This document shows, in pieces, positions 6,715 to 28,012 of a stretch of 32,000 nucleotides of DNA; the stretch's first letter is position 1, and every line of letters starts with the position of its first letter. The notes beneath the pieces are model-generated. The model was given only the letters and a program-made list of their open reading frames with translations. It had not been told where the DNA came from and searched no databases. Origin of the DNA: Isorropodon fossajaponicum endosymbiont JTNG4 (lineage in GTDB: Bacteria > Pseudomonadota > Gammaproteobacteria > PS1 > Pseudothioglobaceae); the NCBI RefSeq assembly GCF_016592615.1, contig NZ_AP013043.1, positions 1,290,001 through 1,322,000 on the forward strand, given 5' to 3'. Position numbers and translations under genes: made by a program.

Positions 6715-7587
6715 TTATTGATTTTTTAGGTACTTGTTGATATTATCTTTATGCTGTTGATAGGTATTTGCAAAAGCGTGAGTACCACCCTTTTTAGCAA
6801 CAAAATAAAGCGCATCGCTCATGTGTGGGTGCGTGGCTGCATGTAACGAATCTGCACCTACCGAGGAGATTGGCCCTGGTGGCAAGCCTTTATCTCTATA
6901 GGTATTGCAAGGGCTTTTAAATTTTAAATCTTGTTTTTTAAGTGGCGCTTGGTAGTGTTCACCCAGTGCATAAACCACACTTGGGTCGGTTTGCAAACGC
7001 ATGCTTTTTTGCAAGCGATGAATGGACACACCTGAAATTTTGGGTTTTTCTTGTGCATTGGCTGTTTCTTTTTCAATTAAAGAGGCAAGTACTAACGCTT
7101 GTTCAGCATTTTCCAAGGGTAGAGTGTCAGCCCTATTACGCCAAGCAAGTGCAAGTTTTTGACGCATCATCTGATGAGCTCTTTTAAACACACTAAGCAC
7201 ACTATCGCCATAATTAATTTGATAAGTATCTGGCCAAAAATAGCCATCATACGGATGGCTTTGCTTAATTTCAGTCATGATTTCTGCTAAAGTTTTGCTA
7301 GATTTTAGTGCTTTCATATTAACCAATTTTTGATAATAGTCATCAATAGTATTGTCCTCAATTAAGGCAATACTTCTGGTCGCCACTTTTGCAGATATAA
7401 AATGATTCAACAAATTAATCACGCTCATATTCGCATTAATATCATAATAACCCGATTTAATTTTTGACTCAAGATTGAGCGATTTGGCAAGTAACCGCAT
7501 AAAAATACCAGAGTTGATATAGCCCAGATACTCTAGATTATTTGCAGTTAAACAAAGGCTGGTCCCTTGAGGATATTTGATACACAA
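6715..7587 (-). CDS. mltG: endolytic murein transglycosylase MltG (YceG-like); the catalytic part is in this frame and the N-terminal TM segment lies in the pabC frame (apparent frameshift)
   Basis: YceG-family motifs are present: LASLIEKET, RLQTDPSVVYALG, YNTYRDKGLPPGPISSVG, LYFVAKKGGTHAF. The ORF opens only at a TTG with no TM helix. The expected TM helix (YLKFIIVFLAISLLFWMYW) is encoded just upstream in the +1-shifted frame, which is continuous with pabC. Confidence 0.8.
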   Translation of the reverse strand: MCIKYPQGTSLCLTANNLEYLGYINSGIFMRLLAKSLNLESKIKSGYYDINANMSVINLLNHFISAKVATRSIALIEDNTIDDYYQKLVNMKALKSSKTLAEIMTEIKQSHPYDGYFWPDTYQINYGDSVLSVFKRAHQMMRQKLALAWRNRADTLPLENAEQALVLASLIEKETANAQEKPKISGVSIHRLQKSMRLQTDPSVVYALGEHYQAPLKKQDLKFKSPCNTYRDKGLPPGPISSVGADSLHAATHPHMSDALYFVAKKGGTHAFANTYQQHKDNINKYLKNQ

Positions 7588-8512
7588 CTGAATTATTTGC
7601 TTTGATAGTATTTGCCCAATACATCCAAAATAGCAAAGAAATCGCTAAAAATACAATAATAAACTTCAAATAAGGCTGTTTTGATTTAAGCAAAATTGAT
7701 GATGAGTGGTTATTTTTAGAGCGAGCAAAAGCACTGATTAATTGATTTGTGATTTGATGATGGCTAAATAATTGCTGATTAATTTTAGCCACAGGCTTAA
7801 TACCTATCACACTATTAGTGATAAACACTTCATCTGCTTCAAGTAGTTTGATTAATGACAAAGAACAAATCTCAAGTTGCAATCCTAGTACTTGTGCCAA
7901 ATCAAAAACCACGGATCTTCGAGTGCCTTCAATACCACAATTAGTCAAACTGGATGTAAAAATCACCTGATTGCGAATGGCAAAAATATTACCTTGAGTC
8001 ACTGAAATGACCTGAGCATTTTCATCCAACATAATACACTCTTGCGTTTGCAATTCTGACCTTGCAAGAATTTGCTCTAAGCGATTACAATGCTTAATTT
8101 CAGACAATAATTGATTACTTACGTAGCCACTAGAACACACACCCAACTCATATTGCCACGGCAAATCAGGCACAGGGGAAATAATGATAATACGAGTTGG
8201 CTTGATGTTTTTCTCATAGCCATAACCTCTTGTACTCTCGCCACGAGAAAGTATAATTTTAACCACGGCTCGGTCTAACTTGGAAATAGCGAACGCTTTA
8301 GCAATTTCCTTGAGCCAAATAGCCTCACTCACTGGATGAATTTTTAACTTATCGCAACCTTTTTTTAACCTTGAAAAGTGCTTGGACCAAAACAACACTC
8401 TAGCATCTTCAATTAAACAAGTTTCAAACAAGCCATCACCAAATTGCACAAGACGATTAAGCGCACTGAGCTTGGTTTGTTTTTTCCCATTAATTAATAA
8501 GGTGCTATCCAT
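7538..8512 (-). CDS. pabC: aminodeoxychorismate lyase (class IV aminotransferase fold); the ORF runs about 55 codons past the expected end into the mltG N-terminus
   Basis: FGDGLFET near the N-terminus, class-IV fold length of about 265-270 aa, and a position upstream of mltG-tmk-holB as in E. coli. The last ~55 residues look like an MltG signal-anchor. Confidence 0.75.
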   Translation of the reverse strand: MDSTLLINGKKQTKLSALNRLVQFGDGLFETCLIEDARVLFWSKHFSRLKKGCDKLKIHPVSEAIWLKEIAKAFAISKLDRAVVKIILSRGESTRGYGYEKNIKPTRIIIISPVPDLPWQYELGVCSSGYVSNQLLSEIKHCNRLEQILARSELQTQECIMLDENAQVISVTQGNIFAIRNQVIFTSSLTNCGIEGTRRSVVFDLAQVLGLQLEICSLSLIKLLEADEVFITNSVIGIKPVAKINQQLFSHHQITNQLISAFARSKNNHSSSILLKSKQPYLKFIIVFLAISLLFWMYWANTIKANNSVVYQISSRDQPLFNCK

Positions 8513-8632
8513 AAGATAACATTATAATTCAATGTATGAAATTACTATCTTGAGATATGAAAATCACTTAAAAATAAATTTTCATCATTTAGCTTAATAC
8601 TCTCATCAAAAAAACGCAAGCCCAAGGTCTTC

Positions 8633-9364
8633 ATGAAAAAAACTGTTCAACAGTTTATTAAAAATCTAACTGATAGCGCTAAAGATTTAGCCCCCATTAT
8701 AGGCGTGATTGCTTTTTTCCAAATCGTTGTGCTTCAGCAAAGCATTCCTAACTTAATGGATATTATAATTGGAACAGGGTTTGTTTTATTGGGCTTGACT
8801 TTATTCATCTACGGACTCAAATTAGGGCTGTTTCCCATTGGTGAAACACTGGCTTATGGCTTTGTCAAAAAGGGTTCAATTTTTTGGTTGCTTTTATTCG
8901 CCTTTGCCTTGGGGTTTGGCACCACAATGGCAGAACCTGCCCTTATAGCAGTGGCCAATGAAGCGGCTAAAGTTGCTCAACTGGGTGGCATTGTCAATAC
9001 ACAAATAGAACTTAATAATTATGCACAAACATTGCGCTTTACTGTGGCTATTTCTGCAGGTTTGGCTGTGGTGATCGGCGTGCTTAGAATTTTAAAAGGC
9101 TGGCCAATACAATACTTAATTATTGGTGGTTATCTTCTAGTAATTGCCACCACTTTTTTTGCACCAGACTTTATCATCGGCATCGCTTATGATTCAGGTG
9201 GCGTAACTACTAGTACTATCACTGTACCACTACTCACCGCACTCGGTGTTGGCTTGGCAAGTTCAATTAGTGGTAGAAATCCTTTAACCGATGGCTTTGG
9301 CATGATTGCCATCACCGCACTGCTACCCATTATTGCAGTGATGTTATTTGGTATATTGCTATGA
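8633..9364 (+). CDS. polytopic membrane protein, DUF1538-type (paralog A)
   Basis: 243 aa with several hydrophobic helices and the motifs [15 protein letters not shown] and [16 protein letters not shown], which I recognise as the DUF1538 (PF07556) family. This assignment was not verified by a search. Confidence 0.7.
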
Positions 9365-10089
9365 GCCTAGTGTATAGCTTTATCAGCATGTTTTGGGATG
9401 TTGCTCCTATTGCAGTAGTGTTGTTTGGTTTTCAAACCATCATCCTTAAAGAAAAAATACCACACTTAAAGAAAATTATCACAGGATTTATTTTAGTGTG
9501 GATTGGACTGACTTTATTTATTGTTGGCTTAGAAAAAGCACTATTTCCTTTAGGAAAATTAATGGCAAACCAACTTACATCAAGTAGTTTTATCGGTAGT
9601 GGCACACTTGGCTGGGGTGATTATTATTGGATTTATATCTTTGCAGCCAGCATTGGCTTTGCCACAACCATTGCCGAACCATCCTTACTAGCAGTTGCCA
9701 TTAAAGCCAATCAAGTCTCTGGTGGTTTCATCAAAGTATGGCCCTTACGAATTGCAGTTGCCATTGGTGTGGCTGTGGGTATTGCCATCGGCAGTTTTCG
9801 CATTGTAGCTGGGCTGCCACTACACTATTTTATTATTACCGGCTACGTTGTTGTACTGATACAAACCTATTTTGCACCTAAAAATATTATTGCACTTGCC
9901 TATGATTCTGGCGGTGTCACCACATCTACCGTAACTGTACCACTGGTTGCAGCCCTTGGACTTGGACTTGCGAGTACAATTGATGGGCGTTCTACACTCA
10001 TTGATGGTTTTGGTTTAATCGCCTTCGCCTCACTGTTTCCGATTATGAGCGTGATGGCTTACGTACAAATTATGAAATTTTTAAAATAA
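9361..10089 (+). CDS. polytopic membrane protein, DUF1538-type (paralog B)
   Basis: 242 aa and clearly paralogous to the upstream gene ([15 protein letters not shown]; [16 protein letters not shown]; [14 protein letters not shown]). Start and stop overlap as ATGA. Confidence 0.7.
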
Positions 10090-10108
10090 GATAAAAATAG
10101 GAGAGATT

Positions 10109-10459
10109 ATGCACTTTAAACTGATTATCGCTTTTGTTGATTCTGACAAAACTGACAAAATACTTGAGGCTGCTAGAACAAAAGGCGCCACAGGTTCAAC
10201 CATTATTTCTCAAGCACGAGGAGAGGGTCTCAAGCACAACAAAACATTTTTAGGACTCAACATTGAAACACCTAGAGATGTCTTATTACTACTTGTAGAG
10301 CAACACCTTTCTAGAGACATACTAGAAACAATTGCTGATACAGGCCATTTTGAATCCAATCCACAAGAAGGGATTGCTTTTCAAATTGATGTCGAGGATG
10401 CTGTTGGCGTCATGCATCAAATTCATGCACTAGAACACACTATAGAGGAGAAAATATAA
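10109..10459 (+). CDS. PII-like signal-transduction protein (divergent; not canonical GlnB/GlnK)
   Basis: 116 aa with a PII-type layout: FKLIIAFVDSDKTDKILEAARTKGATGSTIISQARGEG, a loop, then VLLLLVE...GIAFQIDVEDAVGV. GGAGAG ribosome-binding site upstream. Confidence 0.65.
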   Translation: MHFKLIIAFVDSDKTDKILEAARTKGATGSTIISQARGEGLKHNKTFLGLNIETPRDVLLLLVEQHLSRDILETIADTGHFESNPQEGIAFQIDVEDAVGVMHQIHALEHTIEEKI

Positions 10460-10863
10460 TGACGTATAATACAATACCAACCCTAGTAAAAGATGTTATG
10501 TGGACACAAGTCGATATTGTTGATTCAAAATGCACCGTGCAAAATGCACTTAATGACATGCAACATAAGAAGACTAAAATGCTTTTGGTTGATAAATCTC
10601 ATGAATATGACGAATACGGCGTAGTACTGATTACTGACATTGCCTCTAAAGTCATTGCCAAAGACCGAGCCCTTGACCGAGTAAATGTGTATGAAATTAT
10701 GAACAAACCTGCCATCTCAGTTCGACCTGATATGGACATTCGCTATTGCGCAAAACTATTGACAAATTTTAGCTTGTCTCGTTGCCCGGTTTTAGATAAT
10801 GGAAAAATTGTTGGCGTGATTAGTTTAACCAGTATTGTCTTTAATGGTTTACGGGTTGTATAG
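10459..10863 (+). CDS. stand-alone CBS-pair domain protein
   Basis: 134 aa with two CBS-like repeats (VKDVMWTQVDIVDSKCTVQNALNDM...; VYEIMNKPAISVRPDMDIRYCAKLL...CPVLDNGKIVGVISLTSIV). Its start overlaps the PII-like stop (TAATG). Confidence 0.7.
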   Translation: MTYNTIPTLVKDVMWTQVDIVDSKCTVQNALNDMQHKKTKMLLVDKSHEYDEYGVVLITDIASKVIAKDRALDRVNVYEIMNKPAISVRPDMDIRYCAKLLTNFSLSRCPVLDNGKIVGVISLTSIVFNGLRVV

Positions 10864-10885
10864 TAAAAAAAATTAGCAAATTAGC

Positions 10886-10914
10886 AAATAGTGATATATT
10901 CACTATTTTATTTT
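10886..10914 (+). terminator. possible weak intrinsic terminator after the CBS gene
   Basis: 9-bp stem AAATAGTGA / TCACTATTT (10886-10894 / 10900-10908) with a 5-nt loop, followed by TATTTT. The stem is AT-rich, so it is weak. Confidence 0.35.
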
Positions 10915-10963
10915 AACCTGCTAGAATGCAGAATTATTTTAATTTTAACAATAGGAAAGAGAA

Positions 10964-11617
10964 ATGAGCGGAATTGTCAATCTAGTCAAATGGCTATTAA
11001 TTATCATCGGTGCTATTGCAACTTATTATGCCGTGTCATTACAAATTAAATATGATGGCGTGACTGGAAAGATTATTAGTGAAATGATTTCACCAAAACT
11101 ACACCCCGATTCGATGGCCAAAGTCTATATGCCAATGGCAAATACTTTATTAGATACAGGCGATATTGCCATGGCATCTGTTGTGCGTGTTAAAGTAGCT
11201 GATGATGTTTCAAATGAGGATGTAGAAGAGGCGATGGAAAGTATCGCAACTGCTGAAAGTGTCCGCTCTGTTGGTATGCTGCCACTTTCAGAAATGGTTG
11301 AAATTCAAACCAATTCAGAGGGCGTCACCAAAGGTCATCCAGATTTTAAAAGACAACGTTTCTTAAAAATTTACCAATATTGTTCACCACGCACGGCCAT
11401 GACTATGGTTGATCACTCAGATGCATTTTCAGCCTACTTGCCTTGCCGTATCGCACTTATTGAAGACAAGTCTGGACAAAGATGGCTCTATACGCTAGAC
11501 ATGAATGCCATGATTTATGGGGGTGCGCCACTACCAAAGTACTTACTTGAAAAAGCACTAGCAGTTCAAGAAACCATGAATGCTATTCAAAATGGTGGTG
11601 CAGAGGGGGATTTTTAG
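10964..11617 (+). CDS. DUF302 domain protein with N-terminal membrane anchor
   Basis: N-terminal TM helix (LVKWLLIIIGAIATYYAV). The C-terminal part, KIYQYCSPRTAMTMVDHSDAFSAYLPCRIALIEDKSGQRWLYTLD, matches the DUF302 core (CnP...LPCR). Confidence 0.65.
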   Translation: MSGIVNLVKWLLIIIGAIATYYAVSLQIKYDGVTGKIISEMISPKLHPDSMAKVYMPMANTLLDTGDIAMASVVRVKVADDVSNEDVEEAMESIATAESVRSVGMLPLSEMVEIQTNSEGVTKGHPDFKRQRFLKIYQYCSPRTAMTMVDHSDAFSAYLPCRIALIEDKSGQRWLYTLDMNAMIYGGAPLPKYLLEKALAVQETMNAIQNGGAEGDF

Positions 11618-11635
11618 AAAAACCTATCGCTATAT

Positions 11636-11673
11636 TCAAAAAAAACCGTCTTTTAGACGTAGACGGTTTTTTT
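11636..11673. terminator. bidirectional intrinsic terminator
   Basis: An A-run, then stem ACCGTCT (11645-11651) / AGACGGT (11661-11667) extendable by A:T pairs, a 9-nt loop, then T7. It lies 20 nt after the DUF302 stop. Confidence 0.7.
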
Positions 11674-11714
11674 ATGTCAGAATAAAAACTTAAACTTATT
11701 TAAACGTACAAAAA

Positions 11715-12665
11715 ATGGAACCCATTTATCACGAATTAGATTTTAATGTTACTTGCGTTGACACGCAACACATACGCAAAGACTTTGTCGCTAGCTATTT
11801 AATCGAAGACAATGGACGAGCTGCTTTTATTGATACAGGCTGCCATCTTTCAGTGCCTGGCCTTTTGGCCACACTAGATGCAAAAAATATTAGCCGTGAA
11901 AGTGTCGACTATATTCTATTAACCCACATTCACCTAGACCATGCAGGTGGTGCAGGTGAACTTATCAAGCACCTACCTAATGCCATGGTTTATGTGCACG
12001 AATATGGCTACAAGCATTTAATTGACTCTTCAAAATTACGCGCAGGTGTTGTGCAAGTTTATGGCGAATTATTTTTTAAGCAATTTTTAGGCGATTTAAT
12101 CCCCATATCAAAACAACGCATCATCATTGCCAAAGATAATGATGAAATAACGTTGGGCAAGCGAATATTAAGATTTATCGACACACCAGGACATGCGCGC
12201 CACCACGTCTGTATTTGGGATGAAAAATCACGTGGCGTTTTTTCTGGTGATACACTCGGTGTGAGTTATCGAGAATTTGACACCAGTCAAGGTAGACTCA
12301 TTTTCCCGCCCACTACTCCCATACAATTTGACCCAGAAGTGTGGAAAAAAACCATCAATCAACTCATGAGTCTTAAGCCAAAATACGCTTATTTAACACA
12401 CTTTAACCGCATTGATTTTAACCAAGATTCCGCCAGTATGCTCATTGAACATATTAATGGATTTGTTAATATTGCCAACACCTTAAAAACACAGCCTAAT
12501 CGCGTTAAAGCTATTAAAGAAGCCCTTCTTAATTATCTATTAGCACTTACTAGTAAACAAGGTGTAATGCTTGACAAGCAACAACAAATCAAACTCTTTA
12601 AGGGCGATTTAGAAATTTGCGCCCAAGGTCTTAATGTTTGGCTTGATCATCAATCTAACAATTGA
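11715..12665 (+). CDS. MBL-fold metallo-hydrolase
   Basis: HxHxDH motif (LTHIHLDHAGG) and a downstream DTPGHARHH motif; 316 aa. Confidence 0.8.
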   Translation: MEPIYHELDFNVTCVDTQHIRKDFVASYLIEDNGRAAFIDTGCHLSVPGLLATLDAKNISRESVDYILLTHIHLDHAGGAGELIKHLPNAMVYVHEYGYKHLIDSSKLRAGVVQVYGELFFKQFLGDLIPISKQRIIIAKDNDEITLGKRILRFIDTPGHARHHVCIWDEKSRGVFSGDTLGVSYREFDTSQGRLIFPPTTPIQFDPEVWKKTINQLMSLKPKYAYLTHFNRIDFNQDSASMLIEHINGFVNIANTLKTQPNRVKAIKEALLNYLLALTSKQGVMLDKQQQIKLFKGDLEICAQGLNVWLDHQSNN

Positions 12666-25177: not shown

Positions 25178-26635
25178 TTAAAAACGCCAAAAAGCCTTAT
25201 GCAACAAAGCTATTAAGGTTAATATTTCTAAGCGTCCCAATAACATTGAAAAACTTAAAATCCATTTGGCAGTATCATTAATATTGCCATAATTAGCAGC
25301 AACATCACCCAAGCCTGGACCTAAATTATTAATAGAGGCTGTTGTTGCTGAAAATGCACTGATTTGGTCAAGACCAGTAAACATTAACATTAACATAATC
25401 ATAACAAAGGCGATGACGTACAAAGAAAAGAAACCCCAGACTGATATCAAAGTATTTTCAGGGACACTTTTTTGATTAAGCTTGATGTTGATTTGTGCAT
25501 TAGGATGAATAAATTTTTTAATCTCTTTCATCGCTAATTTAAACATTAATAATATTCTAACAACTTTAATACCGCCACCTGTAGAGCCAGCGCAAGCACC
25601 AATAAAACTAGCAAAAATTAAAAATACAGGCAACACAAACGGCCACAATGAAAAGTTCGTACTAGCAAAACCTGTGGTGGTTATGATAGAAATACTTTGA
25701 AATATGCCATATCTAATTGATTCTTCAATAGTTTGATAGTAGCCTTTATCAAACAAATAGCTTGATACTAATAAAATTGATGCACTTAGAATTAATAGAT
25801 AGGTTTTAAATTCAGAATCTTTTAAATAAATAAATAAATTATTCTTACGCCAGACAAGAAAATGCAGCGAAAAATTAATACTTGCTAGTAGCATAAATAT
25901 CATTGCCACTACCTCAATTGCATAGGAATTGAAATAACCAATAGAGGCATCGTGAGTAGAAAAACCACCAATAGCAACGGTTGCATAACTATGCCCAATG
26001 GCATCAAATGCATTCATGCCCGCAAGATAATACCCCAGTGCACAAACGACAGTAAAACTGATATAAATTTTCCACAATGCTTTGGCAGTTTGAGTGAGCT
26101 TTGGCGTCAATCTTTCTTTAGAAATGCCACTTGATTCTGCATGATAAAGCTCCATACCACCAACACCCAACATTGGTAAAATTGCAACTGCTAAAACAAT
26201 AATACCCATACCGCCTAACCACTGAAGCTGCTGGCGATAATATAAAAGTGCTTTGGGTAAATCATCTAACCCAGAAAGCACCGTTGCACCTGTGGTTGTC
26301 AGCCCTGACATAGATTCAAAAAATGCATCGCTAAAGGACATATCCAAAGATGCTGATAATAAAAATGGCGTAGTAGCAAATAAGGACAAGACAAACCAAA
26401 AACTCACCACCACCAACACACCTTCACGAATTCTAAAATCCTTGGTTGAATTTCTAAAAGGCAGCCATAAAACAAAACCACTGAGTAGTGTTAAAGAAAA
26501 AGCAGCCATAAAAGATGAAGCTTCATTTTGAGCATAAATAAAGTCAACAATAATGGGTGGTAATTGAGTTAAACTGAACAACATTAGCAACAAACCAATG
26601 GTTTTAAAAACAATACTAAATTGCATTTTTAACAA
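25178..26635 (-). CDS. trkH: Trk-type potassium uptake membrane subunit
   Basis: 485-aa polytopic protein directly downstream of trkA, with TTTGF/TTTGA-type selectivity-filter-like motifs (GLTTTGATV, ITTTGFAS, GSTGGGIKV). The track start is TTG at 26635. An alternative ATG at 26626 gives MQFSIVFK... Confidence 0.9.
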   Translation of the reverse strand: MLKMQFSIVFKTIGLLLMLFSLTQLPPIIVDFIYAQNEASSFMAAFSLTLLSGFVLWLPFRNSTKDFRIREGVLVVVSFWFVLSLFATTPFLLSASLDMSFSDAFFESMSGLTTTGATVLSGLDDLPKALLYYRQQLQWLGGMGIIVLAVAILPMLGVGGMELYHAESSGISKERLTPKLTQTAKALWKIYISFTVVCALGYYLAGMNAFDAIGHSYATVAIGGFSTHDASIGYFNSYAIEVVAMIFMLLASINFSLHFLVWRKNNLFIYLKDSEFKTYLLILSASILLVSSYLFDKGYYQTIEESIRYGIFQSISIITTTGFASTNFSLWPFVLPVFLIFASFIGACAGSTGGGIKVVRILLMFKLAMKEIKKFIHPNAQINIKLNQKSVPENTLISVWGFFSLYVIAFVMIMLMLMFTGLDQISAFSATTASINNLGPGLGDVAANYGNINDTAKWILSFSMLLGRLEILTLIALLHKAFWRF

Positions 26636-26638
26636 CCA

Positions 26639-28012
26639 TTAATCAAAATATCCTTTAAACAACTCTTCCACTTCATGGATTTTACTAACATCAGTCAACA
26701 CTAACAATACATGATCTCCTTCTTTGATTACCAAAGTACGCGACCCCATAATCACTTCATGATTCCTAACCACTGAACCCACAACCACACCATCAGGTAA
26801 ATTAATTTGTTCAATAGTTTTACCCACAACATCTGAATGGTGTTTATCACCATGTACGATAACCTCAATTGCTTCTGCCTTACCTTGGCGCAATGAATAC
26901 ACCATCATGGTGTCGCCTTTACGAATATGTGCCAAGATGCCACTAACTGTAATTTGATCAGGTGATATGACCATATCTACACCTTCGCTTTGTTCGGCCA
27001 AATCTTCATAAACATTACGCTTCACCAAGGCGATCGTCTTATGCGCACCTAAACGTTTGGCCAAAATTGAAACAATCACATTGATTTCATCAGAATCTGT
27101 TAAAGCTAAAAATAAATCTGTATTTTCAATGCCCTCTTCTAATAGTAACTCTTCATCGGATGCATTACCTAAAAGCACTAATGTATTTTCAAGCTCGTCA
27201 GCAATTTCACTAACACGCTTTTTATTTATCTCAATCACACGAACGCGGTGATTTTTTTCTAAGAACTTTGCTAAATTAAGACCAATGCGCCCACCACCAG
27301 CAATAATAATGTTTTTATAAGCCTTGTCTTCACGCCTGAATTGTTTAATCACTTTAGAAATACTGGCTTTTTTGGTCATGAAATAAACCCGATCACCATC
27401 ACGAATAACCGTCTCTCCTGATGCGGGAATTGCCCTACCATTACGATATAAGCTTACAATGCGCACCCGTGTTTTTGGCAAATGTTCATGCAGATCTTTA
27501 ATAGGGTGCCCTACAATTGGTGTGCCTGCATAAGCTCTGGTTTCTACCAATTGAACCAACCCATTTTCAAACTCAAACACCTGCTCAGCGCCTGGCTCTT
27601 CAACCACACGCTTAATATAGTTAGTCACCAACTCTTCAGGTGTGATAATGAAATCAATTGGAATAGCATTAGGTGAAAACAACTCTTTCCTATGTAGATA
27701 TTCAGCAGTACGTATACGCGCTACTTTCTTTTCTACTTGATACAAGGTGTGTGCCATCTGGCAAGCCAACATATTACCTTCATCAGAGCGTGTTACAGCA
27801 ATCACCATATCCATATTTTTAATGTCTGCTTCTTCTAAAACGTTAGGATACGAAGCATGTCCACAGACAGTTTTAATGTCTAAATGACGCTGCAAATTTG
27901 ATAAATTAGATTCATCTTTATCAATAATGGTAATGTCATTATCATTATCTAAGCCTAAATATTTGGCTAATGTTGCACCAACTTGTCCCGCACCTAGGAT
28001 TAAGATTTTCAT
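26639..28012 (-). CDS. trkA: Trk system NAD-binding peripheral subunit
   Basis: MKILILGAGQVGATLA and a second IIIAGGGRIGLNLA Rossmann motif. 457 aa with the two RCK halves. Confidence 0.93.
   Translation of the reverse strand: MKILILGAGQVGATLAKYLGLDNDNDITIIDKDESNLSNLQRHLDIKTVCGHASYPNVLEEADIKNMDMVIAVTRSDEGNMLACQMAHTLYQVEKKVARIRTAEYLHRKELFSPNAIPIDFIITPEELVTNYIKRVVEEPGAEQVFEFENGLVQLVETRAYAGTPIVGHPIKDLHEHLPKTRVRIVSLYRNGRAIPASGETVIRDGDRVYFMTKKASISKVIKQFRREDKAYKNIIIAGGGRIGLNLAKFLEKNHRVRVIEINKKRVSEIADELENTLVLLGNASDEELLLEEGIENTDLFLALTDSDEINVIVSILAKRLGAHKTIALVKRNVYEDLAEQSEGVDMVISPDQITVSGILAHIRKGDTMMVYSLRQGKAEAIEVIVHGDKHHSDVVGKTIEQINLPDGVVVGSVVRNHEVIMGSRTLVIKEGDHVLLVLTDVSKIHEVEELFKGYFD

Follow-up and report, generated by a model that had tools for sequence, protein, structure and literature searches.

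A four-gene module in a clam symbiont genome

We analysed a 32,000-nt stretch of DNA (the window; contig NZ_AP013043.1, positions 1,290,001 to 1,322,000) from Isorropodon fossajaponicum endosymbiont JTNG4, a sulfur-oxidising endosymbiont of a vesicomyid clam that belongs to the Ruthia/SUP05 clade and has a genome of ~1.4 Mb. The window contains four consecutive open reading frames (ORFs), all on the + strand, which encode proteins of 243, 242, 116 and 134 amino acids (aa). These are two DUF1538 membrane proteins, here called subunit A (UmpA-like; 8633..9364; PF07556, E=2.7e-66) and subunit B (UmpB-like; 9361..10089; PF07556, E=3.2e-66), a non-canonical PII-like protein (10109..10459; PF00543, 39.4 bits) and a stand-alone CBS pair (10459..10863; PF00571, two stretches). 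The stop codon of A and the start codon of B share the sequence ATGA (9361-9364), a 19-nt spacer containing GGAGAG separates B from the PII-like gene, and the PII stop and CBS start codons share TAATG (10457-10461). An earlier reading of this DNA from its letters alone (the sequence-only reading) had described these coordinates, both overlaps and the 19-nt gap, all of which are present in the sequence. It had also expected two matches to PF07556 and matches to PF00543 and PF00571, as we found.

Downstream of the CBS stop codon lies an AT-rich hairpin of 9 bp followed by a U-rich run (10886..10916, + strand), which together likely mark the operon end. The RNA fold of positions 10858-10935 had an energy of -15.4 kcal/mol (z=-2.9), and the hairpin is partly kept in a sister symbiont (L001). 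A consensus terminator scan did not flag the hairpin because it contains too few G-C pairs. At the other end, the 120-nt intergenic region between a divergent pabC-like gene and A (8513..8632) is the presumed promoter region as judged by reading the sequence; the promoter itself was not located, since a sigma-70 consensus scan returned no + strand site within this interval. An Rfam scan of the window and six related loci found no upstream riboswitch. A direct repeat, ATTAGCAA occurring twice (10873-10888), lies just before the hairpin, in the spacer between the CBS gene and the DUF302 gene that follows, and is also partly kept in L001.

The membrane proteins belong to the UmpA/UmpB lineage

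Subunits A and B share 47% identity (BLASTP E=2e-63), far beyond chance, in line with their earlier description as paralogs. Both matched PF07556 over its full length, with 223 bits each against a cut-off of 22.6 and profile coverage of 1-211 and 1-209 out of 211 positions. The two motifs previously quoted for the pair, the first of which is G-F-(G/A)-T-T-x-A-E-P-x-L-x-A-V-A, were found in both subunits, and each of the two Gly/Thr/Ser-rich motif segments contains one acidic residue conserved in A and B (E101 and D187 in A numbering). Comparison of the N-terminal and C-terminal halves of DUF1538 with HHalign gave no internal repeat (probability <1%), and the two Gly/Thr motifs are therefore no evidence of a duplication within the subunit. 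A search of PDB sequences with A returned nothing useful, and an AlphaFold2 (AF2) model of a head-to-tail A+B fusion, computed without an alignment, was unusable (predicted local distance difference test score [pLDDT], 44.6; predicted template modelling score, 0.23) and was not interpreted. The lack of cysteine in both proteins, also remarked on before, is true for the window, but we dropped it as a family feature because it is not conserved: only 48 of 73 A orthologues and 42 of 68 B orthologues are free of cysteine.

The best NCBIfam model for A was NF041627 (UmpA; 343 bits) and that for B was NF041628 (UmpB; 314 bits), while the cross-scores of A on the UmpB model and of B on the UmpA model were much lower. 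Both models ("Na,Li,K/H(+) antiporter subunit") derive from work on UmpAB of Halomonas zhaodongensis, an overlapping DUF1538 gene pair whose product was reported to be a Na+(Li+,K+)/H+ antiporter (Meng et al. 2017, PMC5484666). In that study, the Na+/H+-antiporter-deficient Escherichia coli strain KNabc was rescued on NaCl, on LiCl and at alkaline pH only by co-expression of umpA and umpB, UmpA and UmpB co-immunoprecipitated, and everted vesicles displayed Na+, Li+ and K+/H+ antiport that was optimal at pH 9 and had K0.5 values of 0.26-0.46 mM (PMC5484666). Homologues of UmpAB (56% identity) occur in saltwater cable bacteria, where they have been discussed by the authors as a salinity adaptation (PMC10030654, PMC12093952), and this distribution provides independent, correlative support for a cation role of UmpAB-type pairs.

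The pair in the window resembles UmpAB in consisting of adjacent DUF1538 paralogs with overlapping stop and start codons, of which the A-type matches UmpA best and the B-type UmpB best, and in having about seven predicted transmembrane segments per subunit; in UmpAB, both genes are needed and their products form a hetero-complex. Unlike UmpAB, for which alone antiport has been shown, the window pair is known from sequence, and its scores lie below the equivalog cut-offs of 490 bits (UmpA) and 500 bits (UmpB). Ten A orthologues from other genera likewise matched UmpA best, at 357-401 bits, all under 490, which indicates that the UmpA/UmpB cut-offs are narrow and presumably enclose a group close to Halomonas. 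On the strength of these profile scores, we place the window pair in the UmpA/UmpB orthologous lineage, where it does not qualify as an equivalog. The statement of the sequence-only reading that no substrate has been assigned to DUF1538 proteins is therefore outdated; through UmpAB, the membrane proteins do hit a characterised transporter family with a known substrate, a result that the same reading had named as evidence against itself. The cloned Halomonas fragment ended at umpB (PMC5484666), so any downstream regulators were absent from the UmpAB work, and the publication mentions neither downstream PII-like and CBS genes nor an inverted topology.

The two soluble proteins are a non-canonical PII-like protein and a CBS pair

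The score of the 116-aa protein on PF00543 exceeds the cut-off of 25 bits, and an AF2 model of the monomer (pLDDT 81) has the order beta-alpha-beta-beta-alpha-beta with an extra C-terminal helix (residues 99-115). All of the top 50 Foldseek matches were PII or PII-like proteins, headed by GlnB/GlnK, SbtB and CPII (E ~1e-6, TM-score ~0.6). Model and structure search thus agree with the PII fold surmised from the letters. The best match of the same protein among PDB sequences, a weak one (E=0.15), was Lmo2692.

The canonical GlnB/GlnK signature, with Tyr51 in the T-loop and T-G-x-x-G-D-G-K-I-F in the B-loop, is absent, as had been noticed before. The protein contains no Tyr at all and hence no T-loop Tyr51 modification site, and its B-loop reads NPQEGIAF, with PQEGIAF in the place of GDGKIF in GlnB. 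The loop pattern is that of canonical PII proteins, with a long T-loop and a short B-loop. Among 67 orthologues, G26-A-x-G29-x-T31, A36-R-G-E-G40, F47, G49 and E96-D97 were invariant; the conserved A-R-G-E-G motif lies at the base of the T-loop, and T-F-x-G-L is conserved as well. Even the tandem PII halves of Clostridia, described below, keep G-x-x-G-x-T, R/K-G-x-G and the T-loop F-x-G/A. Such sequence conservation fits a T-loop with a conserved docking partner. The label "nitrogen regulatory protein P-II" is probably a misleading annotation for the 116-aa protein.

Exhaustive searching with a profile of the PII-like alignment yielded 681 clusters (50% identity) at E<=1e-10, many of which are tandem forms of 205-258 aa. 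When we looked for PII-CBS fusions among the long representatives, the candidates proved to be PII proteins with two or three repeats or probable chimeras, and no convincing fusion emerged; one cluster representative of 357 aa (P0473) contains three PII repeats.

The CBS protein matched PF00571 in two stretches with a score of 64 bits and is thus a CBS pair (Bateman module). Its nearest solved relative is the cyanobacterial CBS-CP12 protein (5nmu; E=1e-19 over residues 11-129), and its invariant residues include D60 and I61, which follow the first CBS beta-strand. Adenine-nucleotide binding is the default expectation for CBS modules.

The module is conserved across genomes

Scanning one genome per GTDB species with the A/B alignment, we recovered at least 582 DUF1538 loci, and analysed the best 80 of these (59-91% identity to A), counting gene arrangements by tblastn. 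The 80 loci represent many orders of Gammaproteobacteria together with Nitrospirota, Rhodospirillaceae, Rhizobiaceae and Gallionellaceae. All four genes were found in the order A-B-PII-CBS and on the same strand at 70 loci. Four loci were uninformative owing to a contig end or N-masking (L023, L043, L046 and L054), and only six informative loci deviated: three had A-B-PII without CBS (L019, L035 and L079) and three had A alone (L020, L026 and L080). PII followed the DUF1538 pair at 75 of the 80 loci, and CBS was present at 71. An isolate of Neptunomonas japonica, for which independent gene calls with precomputed Pfam assignments were available, showed the same series, DUF1538(244)-DUF1538(269)-P-II(116)-CBS(133). 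The association of PII-like and CBS genes with DUF1538, suspected earlier from a single locus, is therefore robust.

The junctions between the genes are equally regular. PII and CBS overlapped at all 58 measurable loci (by 4 nt in 50 and by 1 nt in 7), A and B overlapped at 52 of 62 loci, and the gap between B and PII was at most 79 nt. These statistics point to co-expression in a fixed ratio.

The flanks recurrently held the nadC/ampD/ampE neighbourhood, rluD-pgeF or chemotaxis genes, and no further gene was conserved with the module. A single neighbour hints at function, namely a Kef-type CPA2 K+/H+ antiporter with TrkA-N/C domains. It adjoins the module at 7 of the 80 loci, at 4 of which its gene comes immediately after CBS or PII in the same orientation. 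The genes that recur in the flanks of the 80 loci include none for RuBisCO, carboxysomes or carbonic anhydrase, and neither glnA nor amtB. Carriers of the module include chemolithoautotrophs and methanotrophs (SUP05, Sedimenticola, Thiomargarita, Gallionellaceae, Nitrospirota and Methylococcales) as well as heterotrophs (Colwellia, Thalassotalea, Psychromonas and Neptunomonas) and Clostridia. The speculation of the sequence-only reading about an inorganic carbon or nitrogen substrate found no support in these data, as the module is not limited to autotrophs and no carbon- or nitrogen-assimilation gene recurs nearby.

The loci with A alone carry orphan A-type DUF1538 genes that lack B, PII and CBS. 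Two of them (L020 and L026, Beggiatoaceae) share their upstream context, which speaks for a real second locus type and not an assembly artefact.

A tblastn search of plasmids and chromids added nine distant relatives with 30-38% identity. In three Clostridia (L081-L083), both DUF1538 domains are fused in one protein of ~500 aa, and the fusion gene overlaps the next gene, which encodes a "P-II" protein of 222-224 aa that is a tandem PII-PII (for example, L082:4557-5225). In the alphaproteobacteria Methylocystis and Chelativorans, two DUF1538 genes are followed by a PII gene of 112-122 aa. PII therefore followed the two DUF1538 domains in all five distant relatives inspected, whereas a CBS gene was present in none of them, and the ancient core therefore consists of two DUF1538 domains and PII. 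The CBS pair is then an addition in the UmpAB-like, mostly gammaproteobacterial clade.

Subunits A and B have inverted charge bias

We determined the distribution of positive charges in 73 A and 68 B orthologues as the mean number of K+R per region (positive-inside analysis). The N-terminus had 2.8 in A and 0.5 in B, loop 1 had 0.3 and 3.6, and the C-terminal tail had 0.1 in A (4 residues) and 4.7 in B (21 residues). In the A family, the complete series of 2.8/0.3/../1.9/0.3/1.8/0.1 alternates cleanly between in and out, which fits a predicted topology of seven transmembrane segments with the N-terminus inside and the C-terminus outside. For B, the opposite orientation is predicted, with the N-terminus outside and the C-terminus inside. 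All A-only singletons keep the A-type bias, and no dual-topology singleton was found among those seen.

The distant relatives show the same inversion. In the Clostridial A~B fusions, the inter-domain linker is acidic and contains no hydrophobic or transmembrane segment; it is followed by the first transmembrane segment of the second half (TM1') and a loop 1' containing 3-5 K/R. Loop 5 is rich in K/R in the first half but contains none in the second. The DUF1538 gene pairs of Methylocystis and Chelativorans display the same charge inversion. Given an odd number of transmembrane segments, a direct head-to-tail fusion is possible only if the two halves are antiparallel. From the charge statistics, together with these natural fusions, we infer an antiparallel A/B heterodimer, which would amount to an inverted-repeat transporter split over two genes. 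The heteromeric, pseudo-symmetric transporter proposed by the sequence-only reading gains support from the Clostridial fusion and from the co-immunoprecipitation of UmpA with UmpB (PMC5484666).

There are precedents for such an architecture. Pairs of membrane proteins with opposite topology have evolved into inverted-repeat transporters in the small multidrug resistance (SMR) pairs EbrAB and YdgEF, in DUF606 and in Fluc/CrcB. As in these systems, adjacent paralogs with opposite K/R bias occur here in some lineages and fused versions in others. Unlike the SMR-type pairs, the subunits are much larger (~7 transmembrane segments instead of 4), and no dual-topology singleton was found.

A proposed sensor-gated cation/H+ antiporter

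On balance, and with considerable reserve, we lean towards reading the operon as an UmpAB-type monovalent-cation/H+ antiporter that is gated from the cytoplasm by a pair of PII-like and CBS sensors. According to this model, the four genes would constitute one operon encoding a secondary transporter and two dedicated cytoplasmic sensor subunits. A and B would insert in opposite orientations and assemble as an antiparallel heterodimer, contributing the two halves of an inverted-repeat transporter, with E101 and D187 in the Gly/Thr/Ser-rich motifs as candidate ion-binding elements. The transported ion would most likely be Na+, possibly also K+ or Li+, in exchange for H+. The PII-like and CBS proteins would be made in fixed proportion through translational coupling and would dock on a face formed by the N-terminus and odd loops of A together with the K/R-rich loop 1 and C-tail of B. 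Their assembly may then gate exchange in response to a small molecule, with adenine nucleotides, as reporters of the energy state, being the most plausible signal. The observations made in this analysis are those on gene order, homology and co-conservation, on the PII fold and on the inverted charge bias; what we infer from them is the antiparallel assembly, the docking of the two sensor proteins, the kind of ligand and the direction in which transport would be regulated. Heterodimer formation and antiport activity have been shown for the homologue UmpAB (PMC5484666).

Two groups of known systems offer analogies for the regulatory part of this model. As in GlnK-AmtB and SbtB-SbtA, the PII gene directly follows that of the presumptive transporter, the T-loop is conserved, and GlnK and SbtB are the nearest structural relatives; the adjacency typical of PII-gated transporter systems is found across lineages (75 of 80 loci and 5 of 5 distant relatives). 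Unlike in those systems, the transporter comes from an unrelated family, neither the uridylylation Tyr nor GDGKIF occurs in the PII-like protein, which has an extra C-terminal helix, and a CBS pair is obligately co-encoded. Moreover, AmtB and SbtA are homotrimers, whereas the partner here is a proposed A/B heterodimer of different symmetry. The pairing of a cytoplasmic nucleotide-sensing domain with an ion transporter may also be compared with MgtE, CorC, ClC and OpuA, which use CBS domains, and with KefC and KhtTU, which use RCK/KTN domains and belong with CPA2. In MgtE, CorC, ClC and OpuA the CBS domains are fused to the transporter, while here they form a separate polypeptide coupled translationally to the PII-like protein.

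Several points weigh against the antiporter reading. Scores of 343 versus 490 bits and 314 versus 500 bits do not suffice to establish the pair as functionally equivalent to UmpAB. What the known PII-gated transporters move is a nitrogen or carbon species, not Na+. The internal loops of B are only weakly biased (~1.0 each), and since membrane modelling gave nothing reliable (pLDDT 44.6), fold and antiparallel arrangement are judged from charge statistics alone. A search of PDB sequences with the profile of the PII-like protein gave no match at E<=0.01, and no ligand-binding residues were assigned. Finally, the UmpAB assignment is the result of one heterologous study, which used fluorescence dequenching and lacked the PII and CBS genes. 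A search with a profile of Oceanospirillales A proteins had no Halomonas sequence among its best 120 matches, and for the Halomonas umpAB locus itself PII and CBS genes are an expectation.

We also considered a broader reading, in which a split inverted repeat of unsolved fold is plugged on its cytoplasmic face by a heteromeric PII/CBS sensor and possibly handles another substrate or signal, such as a carbon-, nitrogen- or energy-linked solute. We regard it as doubtful; if true, it would explain why the module is retained in a clam-symbiont genome of ~1.4 Mb. Judging from sequence and gene context, three further explanations all appear less well supported than the antiporter reading. The structural closeness of the PII-like protein to GlnK/GlnB, SbtB and CPII, whose transporter partners carry nitrogen or carbon species, and the many chemolithoautotrophs or methanotrophs among the carriers would suit, by analogy, a nutrient or anion as substrate (bicarbonate, ammonium or another small solute) that is tuned to metabolic state, with the Na+/H+ exchange of UmpAB as a side activity or a leak of the coupling ion. 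Scores below both equivalog cut-offs and a single heterologous characterisation (PMC5484666) would be compatible with such a substrate. Yet the module is equally present in heterotrophs and Clostridia, and its flanks recurrently contain nadC, ampD, ampE and the CPA2 antiporter instead of carbon- or nitrogen-assimilation genes. The conserved buried charges E101 and D187 are acidic, as expected of cation sites, and the PII-like protein lacks the canonical 2-oxoglutarate/ATP signature residues. This explanation therefore seems unlikely to us.

Another possibility, which we consider distinctly improbable, is that the PII-like and CBS proteins form a receptor module of the cyclic di-AMP (c-di-AMP) type for K+ or osmotic homeostasis, comparable to PstA/DarA and DarB/CbpB of Firmicutes. 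Lmo2692, the best PDB sequence match of the PII-like protein, is presumably the c-di-AMP receptor PstA, homologues are labelled "YaaQ" in some sources, and the CBS protein weakly matches the CbpB model. UmpAB also carries K+, and a fused DUF1538 version occurs in Clostridia, which make c-di-AMP. However, these matches are very weak, Pfam assigns PF00543 and not a c-di-AMP receptor family, and the long T-loop and short B-loop are at odds with membership in PstA/DarA, as PstA has the reverse pattern of a short T-loop and a long B-loop. Most module carriers are, moreover, Gammaproteobacteria, a class in which c-di-AMP synthesis is generally not known. Least probable of all, in our estimate, is that the membrane pair mainly serves for sensing or anchoring and keeps the PII-like/CBS complex away from cytoplasmic enzymes as its real targets, with transport being incidental. 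The precedent is GlnK held by AmtB, a sequestration that is established in the PII family, and the highly conserved T-loop would also suit a soluble target. UmpAB alone, in contrast, confers transport and salt tolerance (PMC5484666). In addition, strict adjacency and fusions are confined to PII and the membrane proteins, and no third conserved partner gene was found.

What was known already is a DUF1538 transporter family with one characterised member, UmpAB. Among the literature that we searched, no paper on DUF1538 links the family to PII or CBS proteins. A PII-like subfamily dedicated to this transporter, its obligatory CBS partner and the architecture of two inverted genes seem not to have been described before. 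PII proteins rank among the most widespread of all signal integrators, and few of their transporter partners, such as AmtB and SbtA, are understood. With this module, a third transporter family is seen to be coupled to a PII subfamily of its own, an association that spans phyla and is phylogenetically deep, and in one large clade it adds an obligatory CBS partner, a combination not described in the literature searched. It also supplies an evolutionary series for an inverted-repeat transporter, comprising an opposite-topology gene pair in one lineage and one fused gene elsewhere. The results further imply that UmpAB, a cited marker of salinity adaptation, would have been studied without its native regulators.

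Neighbouring genes

Downstream of the module, on the + strand (10964-12665), lie genes for a DUF302 protein (217 aa, with an N-terminal hydrophobic segment) and a metallo-beta-lactamase (MBL)-fold hydrolase (316 aa). We excluded both as operon members, since only SUP05-clade loci (L001-L003 and L014) have them beside the module and since the hairpin and a 100-nt spacer intervene.

Upstream, in the pabC-like ORF (7538-8512, - strand), the Aminotran_4 domain ends at aa 244 of 324 and a tail of ~50 aa with a transmembrane-like segment is found. This ORF overlaps by 50 nt, in a different frame, with an mltG/YceG ORF on the same strand that has a TTG start codon (6715-7587, - strand). By its sequence, the pabC-like tail looks like the N-terminal membrane anchor that is missing from mltG/YceG, and the overlap in different frames points to a frameshift or fusion. 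In the sister symbiont L001, the pabC tail is likewise present and an mltG ORF of at least 150 aa is absent. Further along the window (25178-28012, - strand), trkA, with two TrkA-N and two TrkA-C domains, adjoins an ORF of 485 aa that is probably trkH, so that a Trk system for K+ uptake is retained in the symbiont genome, ~15 kb away from the module.

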